A DNA stretch of 32,938 bases from a virus, in IMG/VR virus record IMGVR_UViG_3300045988_147139. One strand, written 5' to 3'. The notes beneath the pieces were generated by a model. The model was not told where the DNA came from. It saw nothing but the letters and a program-made list of their open reading frames with translations, and ran no database searches. How positions within the stretch are numbered: position 1 is the first letter of the stretch; each line of letters opens with the position of its first letter. Positions 23,214 to 32,938 of the stretch are shown piece after piece. The position numbers and the translations under genes are program-made.

Positions 23214-23242
23214 TTGACAAATCCTCCTAAATGCCTTATAAT
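23214..23242 (+). promoter_or_regulatory. Exact consensus sigma-70 promoter (antisense to the early operon)
   Basis: TTGACA (23214-23219), 17 nt, TATAAT (23237-23242). It overlaps the RBS region of the PAPS-reductase-like gene on the other strand. Confidence 0.75.
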
Positions 23243-23248
23243 AAGGCT

Positions 23249-23300
23249 GTCTTATTTATCTTTTTGCCGTGTACGGTTGCCGCCGTCACGGCTTTTCTTT
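23249..23300 (+). ncRNA. Candidate ~50-nt antisense RNA (promoter plus immediate terminator)
   Basis: The predicted start is ~23249. The hairpin GCCGTGTACGG-ttgccg-CCGTCACGGC (23266-23292; 10 bp, one bulge) is followed by TTTTCTTT. No ORF is present. Confidence 0.5.
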
Positions 23301-23451
23301 ACCCCTGCACAGGGCATTCGGAGAGCGACAGAATACTTGCCGCACCAACAAACTGCTGAGCGCATTCATTCGCCATCTCAAAGCTGTGTGCCTGAATGCG
23401 GCAGCTGTACTTCCTGCCCTCATAGGCGTATCTAAGGATATACCATTTCAT
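23299..23451 (-). CDS. Hypothetical 50-aa protein (below the ORF-track cutoff)
   Basis: ATG 23451 lies 2 nt after the upstream stop, with GGAGGTG just upstream. The translation is MKWYILRYAYEGRKYSCRIQAHSFEMANECAQQFVGAASILSLSECPVQG. Confidence 0.45.
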   Translation of the reverse strand: MKWYILRYAYEGRKYSCRIQAHSFEMANECAQQFVGAASILSLSECPVQG

Positions 23452-23453
23452 TT

Positions 23454-23636
23454 TTACACCTCCTTGCAAACATCTGTGATAACCGCCTCGACCAGATCGT
23501 CAAGACTGTTTTCAGCGAAAATCCTGTCCTTTGCCTTAGCTTCGGCAGCTTCTCTCGACCCAGCCGATACGCTGTACACATCGTTGAATGCGCCGCCCTT
23601 GAACCTGAGGTGGACATATACGTTGTATGTGCTCAT
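23454..23636 (-). CDS. Hypothetical 60-aa protein
   Basis: It shares a TAATG overlap with the upstream gene. The translation begins MSTYNVYVHLRFKGGAFNDVYSVSAGSREAAEAKAKDRIF... Confidence 0.5.
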   Translation of the reverse strand: MSTYNVYVHLRFKGGAFNDVYSVSAGSREAAEAKAKDRIFAENSLDDLVEAVITDVCKEV

Positions 23637-23800
23637 TACTTTACACCTGCCTTTTCCTTAGCCGCTTCAAGCAGCTTCTTGTCGATGATACGCTTGAGGC
23701 ATTTTGCCATAATCTCAGGGCTTGGCTCGTTCACGAGTATGATCCTGCGTCCGCTTTCGGACATCATTTCTCTGATGATGGGCTTTGTGGTTTCATTCAT
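23636..23800 (-). CDS. Hypothetical 54-aa protein (below the ORF-track cutoff)
   Basis: ATG 23800 lies behind AAGGAG. The translation is MNETTKPIIREMMSESGRRIILVNEPSPEIMAKCLKRIIDKKLLEAAKEKAGVK. Confidence 0.5.
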   Translation of the reverse strand: MNETTKPIIREMMSESGRRIILVNEPSPEIMAKCLKRIIDKKLLEAAKEKAGVK

Positions 23801-23835
23801 ATTTATTTCTCCTTCTTATAATATTTAGACGTGTT

Positions 23836-23864
23836 AATATTTTATAAATTGTGCAGGTTGACAA
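23836..23864 (-). promoter_or_regulatory. Weak candidate promoter for the 23800 gene block
   Basis: On the - strand: TTGTCA (23864-23859), 17 nt, AATATT (23841-23836). It lies back-to-back with the + strand promoter at 23909. Confidence 0.25.
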
Positions 23865-23908
23865 ACAACTCCCAAAGTTTTTCGTAAATACCATATATAG
23901 CTATTTTA

Positions 23909-23937
23909 TTGACAATAATTACTATATGTAGTATAAT
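23909..23937 (+). promoter_or_regulatory. Exact consensus sigma-70 promoter for the 48-aa ORF
   Basis: TTGACA (23909-23914), 17 nt, TATAAT (23932-23937). Confidence 0.8.
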
Positions 23938-23971
23938 TAGGCTATAAACTAATATGAAGGGAGGAATGTTC

Positions 23972-24118
23972 ATGTCAAACACTAAGCAGACAAGTGCGTC
24001 TGTCGCTTCAAAAGCATCGACTATTCTTAGAGATGGTCGATACAGCAAGACTTCTAAGTCAGTTGCCGGAAGCGCTCTTTCTCAGACCAAGACATCTTCT
24101 AAGAGCAGCAAGAAGTAA
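23972..24118 (+). CDS. 48-aa Ser/Lys/Thr-rich protein (below the ORF-track cutoff)
   Basis: ATG 23972 lies 7 nt after GGGAGG. The translation is MSNTKQTSASVASKASTILRDGRYSKTSKSVAGSALSQTKTSSKSSKK. It has its own promoter and terminator. Confidence 0.6.
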   Translation: MSNTKQTSASVASKASTILRDGRYSKTSKSVAGSALSQTKTSSKSSKK

Positions 24119-24130
24119 GCTTGGCAAAAT

Positions 24131-24385
24131 TTAGTTTTCTTTGGCGGAGTGCGAATGTACTTCGCCGCTTTTTTTGAACAGTACCTGTACCGGAACATCT
24201 GAAAAGTATTTTTCATGTATTGCAAGAGCTTCATCAAGTGTGAAGCCTGAACGCCCCGTCAGTTTTTTGCTCAGGTAGTCAGCGCTTATCCCTGCTGCTT
24301 TCGCTATGTCTTTCTTCTTTATTTGCCTGCAGGCAATTTCTACTTCCAGTGCCGGATAAGCGGGTTTAACGGTTCTGTATGGCAA
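24131..24385 (-). CDS. Cro/XRE-like HTH protein (84 aa)
   Basis: It uses a TTG start. IKKKDIAKAAGISADYLSKKLTGRSGFTLDEALAI is a typical small HTH. Confidence 0.65.
   Translation of the reverse strand: MPYRTVKPAYPALEVEIACRQIKKKDIAKAAGISADYLSKKLTGRSGFTLDEALAIHEKYFSDVPVQVLFKKSGEVHSHSAKEN
24143..24175 (+). terminator. Intrinsic terminator of the 48-aa ORF transcript
   Basis: GGCGGAGT-gcgaatgt-ACTTCGCC is followed by GCTTTTTTT. It is embedded in the 3' end of the convergent HTH gene. Confidence 0.65.
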
Positions 24386-24402
24386 CTTCTCCTCATCTCC
24401 TT

Positions 24403-24422
24403 CCTGTCCTGATTTCGGGACA
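24403..24422. promoter_or_regulatory. 20-bp palindrome between two early genes (operator or RNA hairpin)
   Basis: CTGTCCTGATTTCGGGACAG has 6-bp perfect outer arms. Confidence 0.35.
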
Positions 24423-24432
24423 GATAATAAGT

Positions 24433-24621
24433 TTACTGCTCAATGATCTCCATATGGTCATAAGCATATTTGACCATATCATAAACGGTCTGAGCCTTGG
24501 TGTTATTGGTGATCTGCATGACCTCCTCGACCATTTTTGCAGCTTCGGGGTAAGTCCTCAGCTGGGCAAACTCGATAGGCGCTTCCTTTGGCGCTCTTTT
24601 GACTTTGAATTTCTCTTCCAT
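24433..24621 (-). CDS. Hypothetical 62-aa protein
   Basis: ATG 24621 lies behind AAGGAG. The translation begins MEEKFKVKRAPKEAPIEFAQLRTYPEAAKMVEEVMQI... Confidence 0.5.
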   Translation of the reverse strand: MEEKFKVKRAPKEAPIEFAQLRTYPEAAKMVEEVMQITNNTKAQTVYDMVKYAYDHMEIIEQ

Positions 24622-24633
24622 GTTTTCAACTCC

Positions 24634-24662
24634 TTGACAACCCACCTCTTACGCTGTATAAT
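24634..24662 (+). promoter_or_regulatory. Exact consensus sigma-70 promoter for the 63-aa ORF
   Basis: TTGACA (24634-24639), 17 nt, TATAAT (24657-24662). Confidence 0.8.
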
Positions 24663-24694
24663 GATGACAATTTACAGTGAAGGGGGGGATATAA

Positions 24695-24886
24695 ATGAGT
24701 TTCTGTCCTTTTATGAGTAATGGTAAGGACATAAAAAATTGGTGTGGCTGTATAACCTCTTGTGAGCTTCGTATTAACAATAGTTGCGCATTGAAGATAT
24801 TGGCTCAAAAGGCGTTATTTGATGTCAAGCATCAAAAGTCACAGATTGAAGAGAGCAAGCAGAGCGTTGCAGATAGCAGCCGTTAA
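24695..24886 (+). CDS. 63-aa Cys-rich protein
   Basis: ATG 24695 lies 6 nt after GAAGGGGGGG. MSFCPFMSNGKDIKNWCGCITSCELRINNSCALKIL... contains five Cys in the first 31 residues. Confidence 0.55.
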   Translation: MSFCPFMSNGKDIKNWCGCITSCELRINNSCALKILAQKALFDVKHQKSQIEESKQSVADSSR

Positions 24887-25000
24887 TCTGTCAAGCCCCT
24901 CAGCGGTATGCTCCCTTTTCGCCTCCTCTGAGAGCATTTTTATATGTTCCCAGAGGAGATTTTTTGCTTCCGTGGCTGTAAAGTTAGATTTGTTCTCCAT
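24839..25000 (-). CDS. Hypothetical 53-aa protein
   Basis: ATG 25000 lies behind GGGAAGTGAG. Its 3' end overlaps the convergent 63-aa ORF by 48 nt, so one of the two may not be real. Confidence 0.4.
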   Translation of the reverse strand: MENKSNFTATEAKNLLWEHIKMLSEEAKREHTAEGLDRLTAAICNALLALFNL

Positions 25001-25052
25001 TTTCTCACTTCCCTTCATTTTTGTCTGTCCTAATTTTCGCCCAAATGCGGTG

Positions 25053-25271
25053 CTATACTGATATAGAAAGGATTTCGTTGATAGCTGAAACAACCTTACC
25101 GCTTGTTATATCCCCCACAAGAATTTTGTACAGGTTGGAACTGTCAACATAGATGCCGGGATATCGGCGTTTGATTTCAGATATTAGCCATTCCTGCCTT
25201 CGATTTTGCTCCATAAGAGCAAGCTTGACCTTTTTACCGTAATTGCATAATGGCTTTTTGTATTCTGACAA
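25053..25271 (-). CDS. Small XRE-like HTH protein (72 aa), first gene of the early transcript
   Basis: TTG 25271 lies 7 nt after GGAGG (an alternative ATG is at 25286). KVKLALMEQNRRQEWLISEIKRRYPGIYVDSSNLYKILVG resembles an HTH. Confidence 0.55.
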   Translation of the reverse strand: MSEYKKPLCNYGKKVKLALMEQNRRQEWLISEIKRRYPGIYVDSSNLYKILVGDITSGKVVSAINEILSISV

Positions 25272-25303
25272 ATTAACACCTCCCATATTGTAAAATATCA
25301 CGA

Positions 25304-25332
25304 TTGACAGTTACGGAAAAATGTAATATAAT
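25304..25332 (+). promoter_or_regulatory. Exact consensus sigma-70 promoter directed at the HTH-like ORF and integrase
   Basis: TTGACA (25304-25309), 17 nt, TATAAT (25327-25332). Confidence 0.8.
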
Positions 25333-25431
25333 ATAGTTGCAAGATATTATTTTTACGTTCTGCCGTAACTGTGATTTTATTATATTACGTTTAGGCGTAA
25401 ATGTCAATAGTAAAATTACGGATTGGCATAA
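25311..25431. promoter_or_regulatory. Four operator-like dyads TTACG-N6-CGTAA
   Basis: The four sites are 25311-25326 (TTACG-N6-TGTAA), 25353-25368 (perfect), 25385-25400 (perfect) and 25416-25431 (TTACG-N6-CATAA). The first fills the spacer of the + promoter and the third fills the spacer of the - promoter. Confidence 0.6.
25379..25407 (-). promoter_or_regulatory. Exact consensus sigma-70 promoter for the early (- strand) operon, face-to-face with 25304
   Basis: On the - strand: TTGACA (25407-25402), 17 nt, TATAAT (25384-25379). Confidence 0.8.
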
Positions 25432-25465
25432 CTTTGTCAGTGTGTATAAAAGCAGGTGCATATTT

Positions 25466-25645
25466 ATGTCTAAATTGTATGAAACTATCGAACAACTTTG
25501 CAAAAACAAAGGCGTTAATATAACGAAAATGTGTAAAGATGCTGGAACATCTCTCGGAGCGCAGGAGAATGTGGTACATTCACCATTCTTTCAATGTGAA
25601 TTATACCATATCCTCCTCCAAATGTCAAGGAGTGATAACAAATAT
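25466..25645 (+). CDS. XRE-like HTH N-terminal fragment ORF, open in frame into the integrase
   Basis: ATG 25466 lies 7 nt after AGGTG. MSKLYETIEQLCKNKGVNITKMCKDAGTSLG looks like helices 1-2 and the turn of an XRE HTH, after which the similarity is lost. There is no stop codon before the integrase ATG. Confidence 0.35.
25540..25640. other. Candidate attP region
   Basis: The dyads GAATGT-ggt-ACATTC (25567-25581) and AGAATG...CATTCT (25566-25589) and the repeated AATGTG (25568, 25593) lie where the HTH similarity ends, just upstream of int. Confidence 0.25.
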
Positions 25646-27181
25646 ATGAAAACCGCCGTAATATACGCCCGGTATTCGTCCGACAAGCAAACGGAGCAGT
25701 CCATCGAGGGACAGCTCTACGACTGCTACAACTACGCCAAGCAGCACGGCATAACAGTCGTGCGGGAATACATAGACCGAGCCATGACAGGTAAAAATGA
25801 CGACCGCCCCGCCTTCCAGCAGATGCTTCATGAAAGCGCCATGCACAAGTGGGATAGTGTTATTGTGTGGAAACTTGACCGCTTTGCACGCAACACCATA
25901 GACAGCGCCGTAAACCGCCAGATTTTAGCTAAAAACGGCGTGAAGCTGCTGTCCGTCATGGAGAGCTTCGGGGACGATGCCAGCGGTCAGATGATGACCC
26001 ATATCATTGAAGCAATAAACGAATACTACAGCGCCGATCTTCGGGAAAAGACTATCCGAGGAATGCGGCAGTCGGCAATGAAGGCTCAGACAACGGGACA
26101 TATCCCGCTGGGTTACAAGGTCGTTGACAAGAAGCTGGTCATTGATGATGAGACCCGAATTATACCCGAAACTGTGTTCCGAATGTACGCAGAGGGGGAG
26201 AGGCTCACTGACATAGCCGATCATCTGAACGCCCAGGGCTATCGCAACCGCCGAGGCAGACCGTTTACCACAAACAGTTTTTACAATATGCTGGCTAATG
26301 AAAAATACATAGGCATTTACAAATACGACGATATAGTGATCGAGGGAGGAATACCGCAGATGATACCCAATGAAGTTTTTGAGGCTGTAAGAGAAAAGCT
26401 GATAACCAACCGCAAGAGAGCCGCCAAGAACACCGCCAAAGCCGATTATTATTTGTCGGGCAAATTATACTGCGGTCACTGCGGAGAGCCTATGAGCGGG
26501 CTGTCAGGCACAGGACGCAACGGGGTCAAGCACTATTATTACCGCTGTAACGGCGTGCAGAAAAAGTCAGGCTGCCACAAGAAGCTGGAGAATAAATATC
26601 TGATAGAGGACGAGGTGTGCAGAGCAGCACGGTCAGCGTTTGAGCAGATGGACAAGGCGGAGACTGCCGAGACCATTTATCAGATGTATTTGCAGACGGT
26701 CAGAAATGAGTATGCGCCTGCCGAACTGGAAAAGGAGCTGACCGAATGCACTAAGCAGGCTGAGAACGTTGTGAACGCCATAGCTCAGACAGGCGGAAAT
26801 CAGCTTCTGTTCGATAAGGTAAGGGAGCTGGAAGAGCGCAAGGAGCAACTCGGCTCCGCCCTCCGATTGTCTCAGGCGATGACCGACAATGTCCCCTCTG
26901 TGGAGCAGATCACCGTGTTTATAGATGATATCCTTGCAACCGATATCAACACCACCGAGGGCAAGAAAGCTATCGCCGACATCATGATATCAAAGGTGTA
27001 TGTTTACGACGACAAGCTCACGGCCATTTTCAAAGATAAGGACGGCAAAAGCGTTGATATACCGCTATCAGACGTGTCAGATAGCTCCTCAGCGGATTGT
27101 GCTCCCTCTGCGCTGGGGAGCCAAAGCACACACAGGCGAACCGTTGGTAATAATCAATGGTTCGCTTTTGTTATCAGTTAA
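25646..27181 (+). CDS. int: Large serine recombinase (integrase), 511 aa
   Basis: It has an N-terminal resolvase catalytic domain (MKTAVIYARYSSDKQ), a recombinase domain, a zinc ribbon (CGHCGEPM...YYRCNG...GCH) and a C-terminal coiled-coil. Confidence 0.9.
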   Translation: MKTAVIYARYSSDKQTEQSIEGQLYDCYNYAKQHGITVVREYIDRAMTGKNDDRPAFQQMLHESAMHKWDSVIVWKLDRFARNTIDSAVNRQILAKNGVKLLSVMESFGDDASGQMMTHIIEAINEYYSADLREKTIRGMRQSAMKAQTTGHIPLGYKVVDKKLVIDDETRIIPETVFRMYAEGERLTDIADHLNAQGYRNRRGRPFTTNSFYNMLANEKYIGIYKYDDIVIEGGIPQMIPNEVFEAVREKLITNRKRAAKNTAKADYYLSGKLYCGHCGEPMSGLSGTGRNGVKHYYYRCNGVQKKSGCHKKLENKYLIEDEVCRAARSAFEQMDKAETAETIYQMYLQTVRNEYAPAELEKELTECTKQAENVVNAIAQTGGNQLLFDKVRELEERKEQLGSALRLSQAMTDNVPSVEQITVFIDDILATDINTTEGKKAIADIMISKVYVYDDKLTAIFKDKDGKSVDIPLSDVSDSSSADCAPSALGSQSTHRRTVGNNQWFAFVIS

Positions 27182-32023: not shown

Positions 32024-32938
32024 TTAACCTCCGCTGGCGGTTTTAGCCCGCTTGTTTTCCTGCGCAACAACCTTAGCCACATACTTGCCGTCCAGATCAA
32101 CCACCTTGTAAACAGGGCTGCCCGACGAGGCAGATGTGCGCTTGACCGACGCAGATGTGTCCTGACTGTCCGCCGCCGTTGTGTTTGCCGCCGATGTGTT
32201 GGCGGAAATGCTCGCTGAAGAGTTGGCAGCAGATACATTCGCCGCCGCAGCGTCAACGTAATTGCCGTCAAAAACGTCCTTCATGGACTGCTCCCAGTTA
32301 GCCTTGAACGCTTCCATAAAGCTGTCGCCAAACAGCGTGCCTGCGTCAGTACCTAACTTCTCGAACTCGTCTGAGTTTTCCGTCACCATGTTGGCAATGA
32401 TGTTGCTTACGCCCTCATCGTCCTTGTACAGTGACTTGATTTTTGAGAGCTTCTTGGGGTCTTTCAGCAGCTGCGTTGCATAGTCCAGCGCCGCCTCCGG
32501 GTCTTGTTTGAGCAGTTCGTTTATAAGGCTGTCAGGCACATTCTTTTCATACAGCTCGGCGATTTTTGATGTCAGCTTTTTCTTGGCAGCCAGCTTTTTC
32601 TCAAATCCGCTAAGGTCTATCTTGTTTGACTTGGTTTTAGCCCCCGTCCGCTTGTCCGTTTCCTCAGAGCTGTTGAAGATATCGCCACTGCTGCCTTTCA
32701 GACTGCTTGCCAGACTGTCACGGGATTTTACAACGCTGTCATAGACTTTTTCAAGAGTGTCCCGCTGCTTTTTGGCAGCGGTTTCAGCCTCTTTCGCTGC
32801 CTTATCGTCGGTGCTTTTCTGCTCTTTCAGCAGTTTAAGGTTATAGTCCTTGTACACCTCAGAATTGTGGTCAAGGGTCTCGATAAATGCCCTCTCCTGC
32901 TCCAGCAGCCAGCTGTCGTCATAGCCCTTTTCCAGCTG
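32024..32938 (-). CDS. Tape measure protein, C-terminal part (continuation of 2122..1 across the circular junction)
   Basis: The frame ...QLEKGYDDSWLLEQERAFIETLDHNSEVYKDYNLKLL... is continuous with the ORF at the window start. Track ORF 32024..32857 is only its tail end. Confidence 0.85.
   Translation of the reverse strand, partial: QLEKGYDDSWLLEQERAFIETLDHNSEVYKDYNLKLLKEQKSTDDKAAKEAETAAKKQRDTLEKVYDSVVKSRDSLASSLKGSSGDIFNSSEETDKRTGAKTKSNKIDLSGFEKKLAAKKKLTSKIAELYEKNVPDSLINELLKQDPEAALDYATQLLKDPKKLSKIKSLYKDDEGVSNIIANMVTENSDEFEKLGTDAGTLFGDSFMEAFKANWEQSMKDVFDGNYVDAAAANVSAANSSASISANTSAANTTAADSQDTSASVKRTSASSGSPVYKVVDLDGKYVAKVVAQENKRAKTASGG
32884..32938. repeat. Terminal overlap of a circular assembly (copy 2)
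   Basis: Identical to 1-55. Confidence 0.9.

Follow-up and report, generated by a model that had tools for sequence, protein, structure and literature searches.

To our knowledge, P2-like phages of Proteobacteria are the only ones whose face-to-face switches between lysis and lysogeny have been elucidated, and these switches became the model for transcriptional interference. The two start sites of the phage 186 switch are about 62 bp apart, versus ~33 bp predicted for the locus described here. In P2, direct repeats on both sides of the -10 element of Pe are bound by the repressor C, and Cox is also the excisionase. In 186, the convergent lytic and lysogenic promoters give transcripts with overlapping 5' ends, and the repressor targets the lytic promoter (PMC3675496; PMC7708051). 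Interference from the strong lytic promoter lowers the activity of the lysogenic one, an effect lifted by the repressor (PMC3675496, citing Dodd et al. 1990 and Callen et al. 2004; PMC7708051). The 186 CI protein is a 14-mer wheel wrapping the pR-pL DNA, and the distal FL and FR sites lie ~300 bp away (PMC3675496). P2 Pe and Pc also stand face-to-face with starts that lie very near each other, the early promoter being the target of the repressor (PMC13026187; Figure 1C of PMC7708051). Among the papers searched, none described a face-to-face switch in phages of Firmicutes.

Positions 25304-25431 of the window (the whole stretch of DNA analysed, 32,938 bp) are likely to control immunity, and thereby the choice between lysis and lysogeny, in a temperate, siphovirus-like phage whose hosts are gut Oscillospiraceae; the region has convergent promoters and four putative operators, and most of the repressor gene has been deleted in this genome. 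The closest host found is Huintestinicola butyrica. The elements of the region are as follows.

25304..25332, + strand: P+, predicted rightward promoter on the repressor (lysogeny) side; TTGACA 25304-25309, 17-nt spacer, TATAAT 25327-25332
25379..25407, - strand: P-, predicted leftward promoter on the lytic (early) side; TTGACA 25407-25402, 17-nt spacer, TATAAT 25384-25379
25311-25326, no strand: dyad O1, TTACGGAAAAATGTAA, one mismatch; inside the P+ spacer, centre at -20.5 of P+
25353-25368, no strand: dyad O2, TTACGTTCTGCCGTAA, perfect; in the stretch predicted to be transcribed from both sides, near +12 of P- and +22 of P+
25385-25400, no strand: dyad O3, TTACGTTTAGGCGTAA, perfect; inside the P- spacer, centre at -20.5 of P-
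25416-25431, no strand: dyad O4, TTACGGATTGGCATAA, one mismatch; upstream of the P- -35, centre at -51.5 of P-

The original prediction likened this region to 186 pR/pL and P2 Pe/Pc. The likeness stands for the face-to-face layout (PMC3675496, PMC13026187); no link of family to P2 C/Cox or 186 CI/Apl emerged, and the proteins here appear to be of the XRE/Cro-C1 type, with palindromic sites. Like P2 Pe/Pc, the window promoters face each other with closely spaced predicted starts, but the sites are inverted repeats that fill both promoter spacers, and nothing ties the 72-aa protein described below to excision, a role that Cox has in P2. In place of the 186 CI wheel with its FL and FR sites, the window has just four simple palindromes, which would serve an XRE-type protein, and a search turned up no distal sites. 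The window phage also differs from 186 in its Gram-positive Clostridia host and serine recombinase, and in its relatives the repressor gene is followed by an ImmA-like gene. As in the CI-Cro pairs of lambda, 434 and P22, two HTH proteins of the Cro/C1 fold probably compete for shared, graded palindromic operators, and one weak site (O1) lies in the repressor's own promoter, as OR3 does in lambda. In the lambdoid phages, however, PRM and PR are back-to-back (divergent), whereas those of the window converge, and each would be crossed by transcription from the other.

P+ and P- both have the exact sigma-A consensus in the window, where exact TTGACA-N17-TATAAT occurs six times against 0.00 expected. 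The convergent pair described in the original prediction agrees with the sequence to the base, and the proposed ~34-nt overlap of the 5' transcript ends is a predicted value that derives from the -10 positions. The starts are predicted at ~25339 (P+) and ~25372 (P-), with ~33 bp between them, and the predicted open-complex footprints overlap at ~25353-25358. At the sequence level the promoters face each other with overlapping predicted 5' ends, a layout that is conserved in relatives. The claim of four TTACG-N6-CGTAA dyads, two of which fill the promoter spacers, likewise checks out in positions, mismatches and centre spacings (42, 32 and 31 bp for O1-O2, O2-O3 and O3-O4). O1 and O3 each cover 16 of the 17 spacer positions of P+ and P-, respectively. 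With at most one mismatch, the motif has four matches in the 32,938-bp window, all within 121 bp, against 0.67 expected, and none of 100 shuffles reached four matches. The window contains no distal operators, just scattered, patternless matches with two mismatches. No distal operators were found in 8-12 kb of the relatives either, apart from one isolated one-mismatch match in locus L088, ~2 kb from the L088 switch. The 10-bp inverted repeat (25307-25316/25363-25372) that had been read from the same pattern exists and extends to 20 nt at 85%, but it was rejected as a separate element: it consists of O1 and O2 plus four flanking bases, and these flanks are unconserved in relatives. P+ and P- themselves are the arms of a 40-nt inverted repeat (80% complementary).

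Conservation was examined in an operator-blind survey of 80 IMG/VR loci, which were retrieved by repressor alignment without reference to operators. The same face-to-face geometry is present in many gut phages of Oscillospiraceae and Ruminococcaceae, and among the well-resolved representatives of the survey it is kept down to ~39% repressor identity. Dyads occupy the same four positions in all surveyed loci with a repressor identity of at least 57%. Aligning 19 distinct switches showed little or no variation in the hexamers, invariant half-sites and variable N6 cores. O1 has exactly one half-site mismatch in every TTACG-type relative and is thus a conserved imperfect (weak) site. Relative to the repressor ATG, the P+ -35 is found ~162-166 nt upstream in relatives whose repressors are 39-100% identical, the P- -35 lies 54-69 nt upstream, and O4 lies 50-51 nt upstream in all relatives; P- scores 10-12 of 12 in essentially all of them. 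The O3-O4 spacing in relatives is 30/31 or 41 bp, a clean 10-bp indel that preserves the helical phase.

The operator sequence itself differs among relatives. GTAC-type palindromes are found at the same positions in L049/L061 and in Flavonifractor phage Castelnaud, and TTACAG-N4-CTGTAA palindromes in L050. These swaps accompany changes in helices 2-3 of the repressor and helix 3 of the Cro-position protein. In 25 of the 26 spacers of 13 representative loci, at least four of the six outer positions are palindromic, against a background of 8.6%. From one -35 to the other, the distance stays within 102-112 bp in loci with three operator specificities and two families of Cro-position protein, Castelnaud among them, and this holds down to 35-39% repressor identity. 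The comparative analysis supports the view that the promoters and dyads behave as functional elements, because hexamers and half-sites are invariant, cores are variable, the geometry is kept, and the operators co-vary with the HTH recognition helices. The elements, their non-random occurrence, their conservation and the operator-protein co-variation are direct observations.

We propose a model for the intact switch, in which promoter activity, protein-site pairing, cooperativity and interference are inferred. P+ would drive the repressor operon, which in intact relatives consists of the 131-aa XRE repressor, an HEXXH ImmA-like protein and cargo, with the integrase further downstream. P- would drive the early (lytic) operon headed by a putative Cro-like HTH protein of 72 aa. 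The 16-bp dyads are putative operators for repressor dimers and probably also for the Cro-like protein. O2, O3 and O4, the last of which is three helical turns from O3, would form a cooperative array shutting P-, while O1 would probably mediate negative autoregulation when the repressor is abundant and/or be the site that the Cro-like protein prefers. Among relatives, the O2-O3 spacing drifts from 32 to 35 bp and is not strictly in helical phase, which weakens a simple cooperativity model across all four sites. As the predicted starts are only ~33 bp apart, the open complexes would nearly collide, each polymerase would have to cross the opposing promoter, and an active P- would be expected to depress P+, either because the promoters compete or by sitting-duck interference. 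P+ would be freed from this once P- is repressed, as at 186 pR/pL. There are precedents for such a mechanism (PMC3675496, PMC6593788, PMC7708051). A repressor bound to O2-O4 would sit in the path of P+ and could block repressor synthesis, beyond relieving interference.

The region might instead be an ordinary operator-occupancy switch, in which convergence is compact packaging and neither interference nor antisense transcription has a meaningful part. Operators placed directly in both spacers would by themselves be enough for repression. Furthermore, the promoters seem to stand back-to-back in some distant members of the repressor family, for example L065, with its + promoter 37 nt and its - promoter 65 nt upstream of the ATG, so the repressor family does not require the convergent layout. 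We nevertheless regard this explanation as unlikely, because the -35 to -35 span is fixed at 102-112 bp, suggesting that the geometry itself is under selection, and because polymerases with predicted starts ~33 bp apart should physically interfere (PMC6593788).

The candidate regulators of the convergent switch were analysed together with the neighbouring integrase. The window encodes the following two of these proteins.

25053..25271, - strand: 72-aa protein in the Cro position, first gene of the leftward operon; TTG start at 25271, GGAGGTG at 25283-25277
25646..27181, + strand: large serine integrase, 511 aa from its own Met and RBS; Pfam Resolvase, Recombinase and Zn_ribbon_recom

The integrase matches PHROG 95 (E 3.5e-107), and the 511-aa protein from its own Met has no entry in the exact-protein index. 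The 131-aa repressor of the relatives is, judging from its profile matches, a Cro/C1-type (XRE) HTH protein. In L001 it matches HTH_19 (32.8 bits, cut-off 30.2), HTH_26 (31.1 bits, cut-off 22) and HTH_3 (24.6 bits, cut-off 23), and in a PDB sequence search the repressor profile matches the DNA-binding domains of ImmR (7t8i), DdrO and SinR. A few repressor homologues carry precomputed PF07022 (Phage_CI_repr) matches. In the NCBIfam scan the repressor received a sub-threshold RstR match alone, and the other proteins had no match. PDB entry 9sf2 is a full-length structural relative of the repressor, and a literature search for this entry found no description of it. Overall, every match from the scans of Pfam, PHROG and NCBIfam and from the search of PDB sequences was to a generic XRE/Cro-C1 family or structure, and none named a P2 or 186 regulator.

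The 72-aa protein has a weak match to PHROG 1468 'transcriptional repressor' (E 0.0018). Neither the protein nor its 51 homologues have a Pfam domain, and the family profile gave only spurious coiled-coil matches to PDB sequences. Its AF2 model (pLDDT 91) has four helices, and the top Foldseek matches are XRE, 434 Cro, P22 c2 and HipB proteins with TM 0.56-0.65, yet E>1; for 434 Cro, TM is 0.60-0.65 with E>1. The putative recognition helix 3 of the family varies with the operator type, with SSNLYK, SGY(M/L)(N/Y)K or SSYLNK. We also considered that one HTH protein alone uses the dyads; for example, the repressor binds them while the 72-aa protein acts elsewhere or as a MOR-like anti-repressor (TP901-1/phi13), or the 84-aa HTH protein (24131-24385), which has a weak HTH_26 match, is the real second regulator. 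CI/MOR-type switches are known in Gram-positive phages (PMC9694928), and the lack of a Pfam domain or sequence-level PDB match in the 72-aa family would fit such a division. This arrangement is rather improbable, however, given that the putative recognition helix of the 72-aa protein changes with the operator type and that its predicted fold is closest to DNA-binding Cro/C1 domains.

The gene order around the convergent switch resembles that of ImmR/ImmA modules (ICEBs1, phi105; DdrO/IrrE), in that the XRE repressor gene of the relatives is directly followed by an HEXXH gene. In close relatives, however, the HEXXH protein is just 69-72 aa and lies under the Pfam M78 threshold (Peptidase_M78, 15.9 bits for the 72-aa protein of L001 and 20.4 bits for the 69-aa protein of L005; cut-off 22), and is a putative protease; in the window the whole module is deleted. 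Castelnaud (ON453903) shares the layout, with a -35 to -35 span of 107 bp and dyads in both spacers, and its flanks are as in the relatives: a small regulator lies on one side, and on the other a repressor next to a metalloprotease (142 aa, with the annotation metallo-protease). It differs in its GTACAA/TTGTAC operators and in its repressor, which is only 44% identical over the HTH. Castelnaud is an inducible prophage of F. plautii YL31 (PMC10197239). The paper describing it never mentions a repressor, and its switch is thus undescribed.

In the window, which is a complete circular genome with a 55-bp terminal repeat, this module has been cut away. The intact relatives L001-L004 and the H. butyrica prophage L086 have a switch identical to that of the window, followed in order by the 131-aa XRE repressor, the 72-aa HEXXH protein, a DUF4236 protein, a 274-aa protein and the integrase. 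Approximately 2.8 kb of this sequence is missing from the window, comprising most of the repressor gene, the ImmA-like gene and two cargo genes.

25466..25546, + strand: repressor stub, first 27 codons; recognition helix lost, fused in frame to the integrase
25535..25546, no strand: deletion junction with microhomology AAAGATGC(T)GGA; ~2.8 kb of relatives absent here

The junction microhomology is 8-12 bp, and the fusion of stub and integrase runs through 33 codons of the former integrase leader. The product of the 25466 ORF had been put forward as a DNA-binding candidate, a role that does not suit a 27-codon stub cut before the recognition helix; being truncated, the ORF has no Pfam or PHROG match. 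The division of the two promoters between the repressor and the lytic operon is seen in the intact relatives, and the window module is incomplete. The proposal of a bistable switch likewise does not apply to the window genome, since a switch whose repressor gene is cut after codon 27 by the ~2.8-kb deletion cannot be bistable. Its operators are intact, and no cognate repressor would be made, as the gene is gone from codon 28 on. The window switch is probably stuck in the lytic state. The deletion phage should form clear plaques as an obligately lytic derivative, and it should stay sensitive to a repressor provided in trans. Such a variant could persist with a helper prophage.

Whether the missing 2.8 kb reflects assembly or amplification, so that the real phage has an intact repressor, was examined at the junction. 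The exact junction is absent from IMG/VR and JGI metagenome contigs. Through the exact-protein index, the identical fusion ORF and junction were found in five contigs from several (at least two) ENA assemblies, among them ERZ1309985 and ERZ501720, one of these contigs occurring in three samples; the contigs match the window at 100% identity, and their samples might be related. An artefact is nonetheless very improbable, as the same junction recurs across these contigs and samples and a microhomology of 8-12 bp is too short to mislead an assembler with k apparently 55 (equal to the terminal repeat).

The complementary arms of the 40-nt inverted repeat could also suggest that the symmetric 124-bp element, including its dyads, is a cruciform, replication origin, recombination site or RNA hairpin with no promoters, but we give this next to no credence, because conservation is confined to the -35/-10 hexamers with their strict 17-nt spacing and the half-sites and does not extend over the whole arms, neither predicted transcript holds both arms, an Rfam scan of the whole window at the gathering threshold (including the switch region and the small RNA described below) gave no match, and the arms are explained by one promoter-plus-operator unit used twice in opposite orientations.

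The deletion also affects the RNA predicted to start at a third promoter, between the convergent switch and the integrase.

25600..25628, - strand: third exact-consensus promoter with a TG-extended -10 and without operators; leftward, towards the switch
25547..25593, - strand: 5' part of a predicted small RNA; terminator cut off by the deletion

Downstream of this promoter, relatives have two hairpins and a U9 terminator, which predicts an RNA of ~75 nt. The fold is stable in L001 (dG -32.9, z -6.0), while the window version lacks the U-run (dG -16.1, z -1.3), and no other terminator is predicted on the - strand from 25600 to 25300. We tentatively raise the possibility, which we hold to be doubtful, that a single microhomology deletion was the one step by which a temperate phage of the gut became a virulent form now in circulation, with the third promoter reading through the operators into the lytic operon, and that the intact relatives are the first family of face-to-face switches outside P2-like phages. 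If so, the read-through early expression would be at least partly insensitive to repressor from resident prophages, and there would be a family of XRE-built switches with swappable operator specificities. H. butyrica Sanger_06 and Flavonifractor plautii YL31 (phage Castelnaud) would then be tractable models.

On the sequence evidence, the window region is likely to be a real operator/promoter switch that is P2/186-like in layout and apparently built with XRE-type proteins. Unrelated proteins of the XRE type, with simple palindromes inside both promoter spacers, appear to have given rise to the same layout. It spans many phage lineages of the abundant, poorly studied Clostridia of the human gut, in which immunity specificities appear to be swapped on a fixed scaffold, and provides a natural series for the evolution of operator specificity. 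The compact symmetric design may be reusable in synthetic circuits, and the combination of promoter geometry and spacer dyads offers sequence rules for predicting immunity groups of gut prophages. The recurring genome with a deleted repressor is a candidate for a naturally lytic derivative of a temperate gut phage, which would matter for phage-host dynamics and for deciding which phages to use in microbiome editing.

The rightward promoter P+ (repressor side) and the leftward promoter P- (lytic, early side) face each other among four dyads, O1 to O4, with centre-to-centre distances of 42, 32 and 31 bp. Dyad positions are also given relative to the predicted transcription starts.

25304-25309 and 25327-25332, + strand: P+, TTGACA and TATAAT, 17-nt spacer
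25407-25402 and 25384-25379, - strand: P-, TTGACA and TATAAT, 17-nt spacer
25311-25326: O1, TTACGGAAAAATGTAA, one mismatch; P+ -20.5, P- about +54
25353-25368: O2, TTACGTTCTGCCGTAA, perfect; P+ about +22, P- about +12
25385-25400: O3, TTACGTTTAGGCGTAA, perfect; P+ about +54, P- -20.5
25416-25431: O4, TTACGGATTGGCATAA, one mismatch; P+ about +85, P- -51.5

On reading the sequence, all promoter and dyad coordinates in the original prediction were correct. Its 10-bp inverted repeat also exists, although it merely consists of O1 and O2 plus four flanking bases. Each promoter, together with the operator in its spacer, forms one arm of a 40-nt inverted repeat (80%): a single promoter-plus-operator unit appears twice, once in each orientation. 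Allowing up to one mismatch, TTACG-N6-CGTAA has four matches in the 32,938-bp window, all at the switch (0.67 expected; four matches reached in 0 of 100 shuffles), and exact TTGACA-N17-TATAAT occurs six times (0.00 expected).

Comparative analysis covered 80 loci fetched by repressor-homologue alignment, with operators not used as a criterion, representing 58 distinct upstream regions. The geometry recurs among these regions, with the -35 elements of P+ and P- lying approximately 162-166 and 54-59 nt upstream of the repressor ATG, respectively, and a -35 to -35 span of 102-112 bp across the loci that share it. It is present in TTACG-type loci, some of which carry a 10-bp shift (e.g., L012, L040, and L005), and in the more diverged loci L049, L050, L061, L062, L067, and L074, with repressor identities as low as 35-39%. 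Promoters seem to lie back to back in some distant relatives, such as L065, so the scan does not force a face-to-face result. Wherever the repressor is at least approximately 57% identical, the locus has TTACG-N6-CGTAA-type dyads at matching positions; in the L013 group, the second of them is degenerate. In 13 representative loci, at least four of the six outer positions are palindromic in 25 of 26 spacers, against a background of 8.6%. Alignment of 19 distinct switches, including those of Huintestinicola butyrica, Hominimerdicola aceti, and an Oscillospiraceae MAG, showed that the invariant columns are exactly the four hexamers and the half-sites, while the N6 cores and inter-operator DNA vary. 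O1 has exactly one half-site mismatch in every member, usually the right TGTAA (the left TTACA in L088), and the sole O3-O4 indel changes the spacing by a clean 10-bp step (30/31 versus 41 bp). These two features point to selection on binding strength and helical phase.

In more diverged phages, the scaffold is retained with a different palindrome. The dyads are of the GTAC type in L049 and L061 (e.g., GTACTTCTGCAAGTAC in the P- spacer), L050 has TTACAG-N4-CTGTAA, and L062, L067, and L074 have GTTGAA/TTCAAC-type sites. The repressor HTH varies in step with operator type: ITKMCKDAGVSRGSLTDLK and close variants for TTACG, PGKMCNDIGLSRGMMTDLK and AGKMCADLGMSRSLMTDLK for GTAC, and ISEMCRESQVSRSALTELK for TTACAG. 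Helix 3 of the Cro-position protein also varies in step (SSNLYK, SGY(M/L)(N/Y)K, or SSYLNK). The neighboring features in the window are as follows.

25271-25053, - strand: 72-aa Cro-position protein, first early-operon gene; TTG start preceded by GGAGGTG
25628-25600, - strand: third exact-consensus promoter, TG-extended -10, operator-free
Met 25646, right of the switch: large serine integrase (Resolvase, Recombinase, Zn_ribbon_recom; PHROG 95, E 3.5e-107)

The early operon runs on the - strand to the left of the switch and continues with an 84-aa weak HTH_26 protein, a RecT-like protein, and others; endolysin and holin genes lie past the integrase on the - strand. The Cro-position protein weakly matches a PHROG "transcriptional repressor" family (E 0.0018). 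Its model is a confident four-helix domain (pLDDT 91) whose best structural matches are Cro/C1 HTH domains (434 Cro: TM 0.60-0.65, rmsd 1.9 A, E >1), and it likely binds DNA. An exact 55-bp terminal direct repeat (1-55 and 32884-32938) shows that the assembly of the window is circular and complete (approximately 32.9 kb).

We propose a three-part mechanism as the simplest reading of the operator positions. Repressor dimers at O3, O2, and O4 would turn off the lytic promoter, with O3-O4 cooperativity suggested by the conserved helical phase; however, repressor occupying O2-O4 could itself obstruct transcription from P+. The weak, conserved O1 would mediate P+ autoregulation and/or be a Cro target. 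Firing of P- would lower P+ by promoter competition or sitting-duck interference, because approximately 33 bp separate the predicted starts and the two open-complex footprints meet at 25353-25358. Both processes are catalogued for convergent promoters (PMC6593788), and interference of this type was shown for 186 pR/pL (PMC3675496).

The window itself has lost the repressor. Four IMG/VR contigs (L001-L004) and the prophage of the cultured gut isolate H. butyrica Sanger_06 (L086) match it at 95-100% identity, and all five carry an extra 1.9-2.8 kb between window positions 25546 and 25535. Their equivalent of the ORF at 25466 encodes a full-length XRE-family repressor of 131 aa, with HTH_19, HTH_26, and HTH_3 hits above threshold. 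After it come a HEXXH protein of 72 aa, which matches Peptidase_M78/IrrE below threshold, a DUF4236 protein, a 274-aa protein, a small - strand gene, and the integrase. The deletion of approximately 2.8 kb (L001 2606-5395; junction 25535-25546), whose end-points have the microhomology AAAGATGC(A/T)GGA in common, removed everything from the repressor C-terminus, through the ImmA-like HEXXH, DUF4236, and 274-aa genes, to the small - strand gene. The 25466 ORF, whose product was originally put forward for binding assays, is only a repressor stub of 27 codons that stops before the recognition helix and is joined in frame to the integrase via the former integrase leader. The deletion is no isolated artefact: the exact 571-aa fusion product is recorded in five contigs (several ENA assemblies), and two retrieved ENA contigs match the window at 100% identity over the junction. 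IMG/VR and JGI contigs lack this junction. Because no repressor remains, the operators are orphaned in this genome, and the phage is expected to be a lytic derivative of the clear-plaque type, still repressible in trans.

In intact relatives, two hairpins and a U9 tract lie downstream of the third promoter, predicting a structured RNA of approximately 75 nt antisense to the integrase leader (L001 5362-5475; dG -32.9, z -6.0), with no Rfam match. In the window counterpart (25547-25628, - strand; dG -16.1, z -1.3, no U-run), the deletion end-point cuts the terminator. With no further - strand terminator predicted between there and the switch, read-through from the operator-free 25628 promoter into the lytic operon is plausible.

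All six exact promoters lie within 2.4 kb of the early region (23214-25628): + 23214, + 23909, + 24634, + 25304, - 25407, and - 25628. The + promoters at 23214, 23909, and 24634 oppose the leftward early operon, giving several convergent pairs beyond the switch. The 23909 promoter, a 54-aa ORF (PHROG 5079, E 6e-21), and a terminator (24142-24167) together make up a self-contained moron-like cassette. The H. butyrica prophage has, after its + promoter equivalent to 24634 (region 24634-24886 in the window), approximately 940 bp of extra DNA encoding a 173-aa protein (L086 4326-4847) that the window lacks. From these two cases, consensus + promoters look like docking points for cargo genes. The H. 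butyrica switch is identical except for a lytic -35 of TTAACA instead of TTGACA (L086 ~5937, equivalent to window 25405), which could be a promoter-down polymorphism in the resident prophage. The circular genome is homologous to the integrated prophages L086 and L001 only as far as 27124, a position within the 3' end of the integrase ORF (stop 27181), which places attP within the integrase gene. Integration exchanges the last ~19 integrase residues (window ...ALGSQSTHRRTVGNNQWFAFVIS; prophage L001 ...ALGSQANFKAN). An imperfect inverted repeat is present at 27134-27167, near the homology end (region ~27120-27170).

By layout, the closest known systems are the face-to-face switches of 186 and P2-like phages. 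Scans of Pfam, PHROG, NCBIfam, and PDB sequences revealed no homology to their regulators. The proteins are of the XRE/Cro-C1 type, with ImmR, SinR, and DdrO nearest by profile. The sites are palindromic, no distal sites were found, and an ImmA-like gene is paired with the repressor. Among cultured phages, no close homologue of the repressor or Cro-position protein was found. The layout is shared by Flavonifractor phage Castelnaud (L105, ON453903), an inducible F. plautii YL31 prophage (PMC10197239): its span is 107 bp, both spacers hold perfect GTACAA/TTGTAC dyads, and its repressor gene precedes a gene annotated as a metallo-protease. A deposited 33-aa "hypothetical protein" CDS spans its switch (1072-1173) and is probably a mis-call over promoter/operator DNA. 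In the literature searched, no Firmicutes phage is described as having a face-to-face switch. H. butyrica Sanger_06 and F. plautii YL31 make this switch approachable by experiment.
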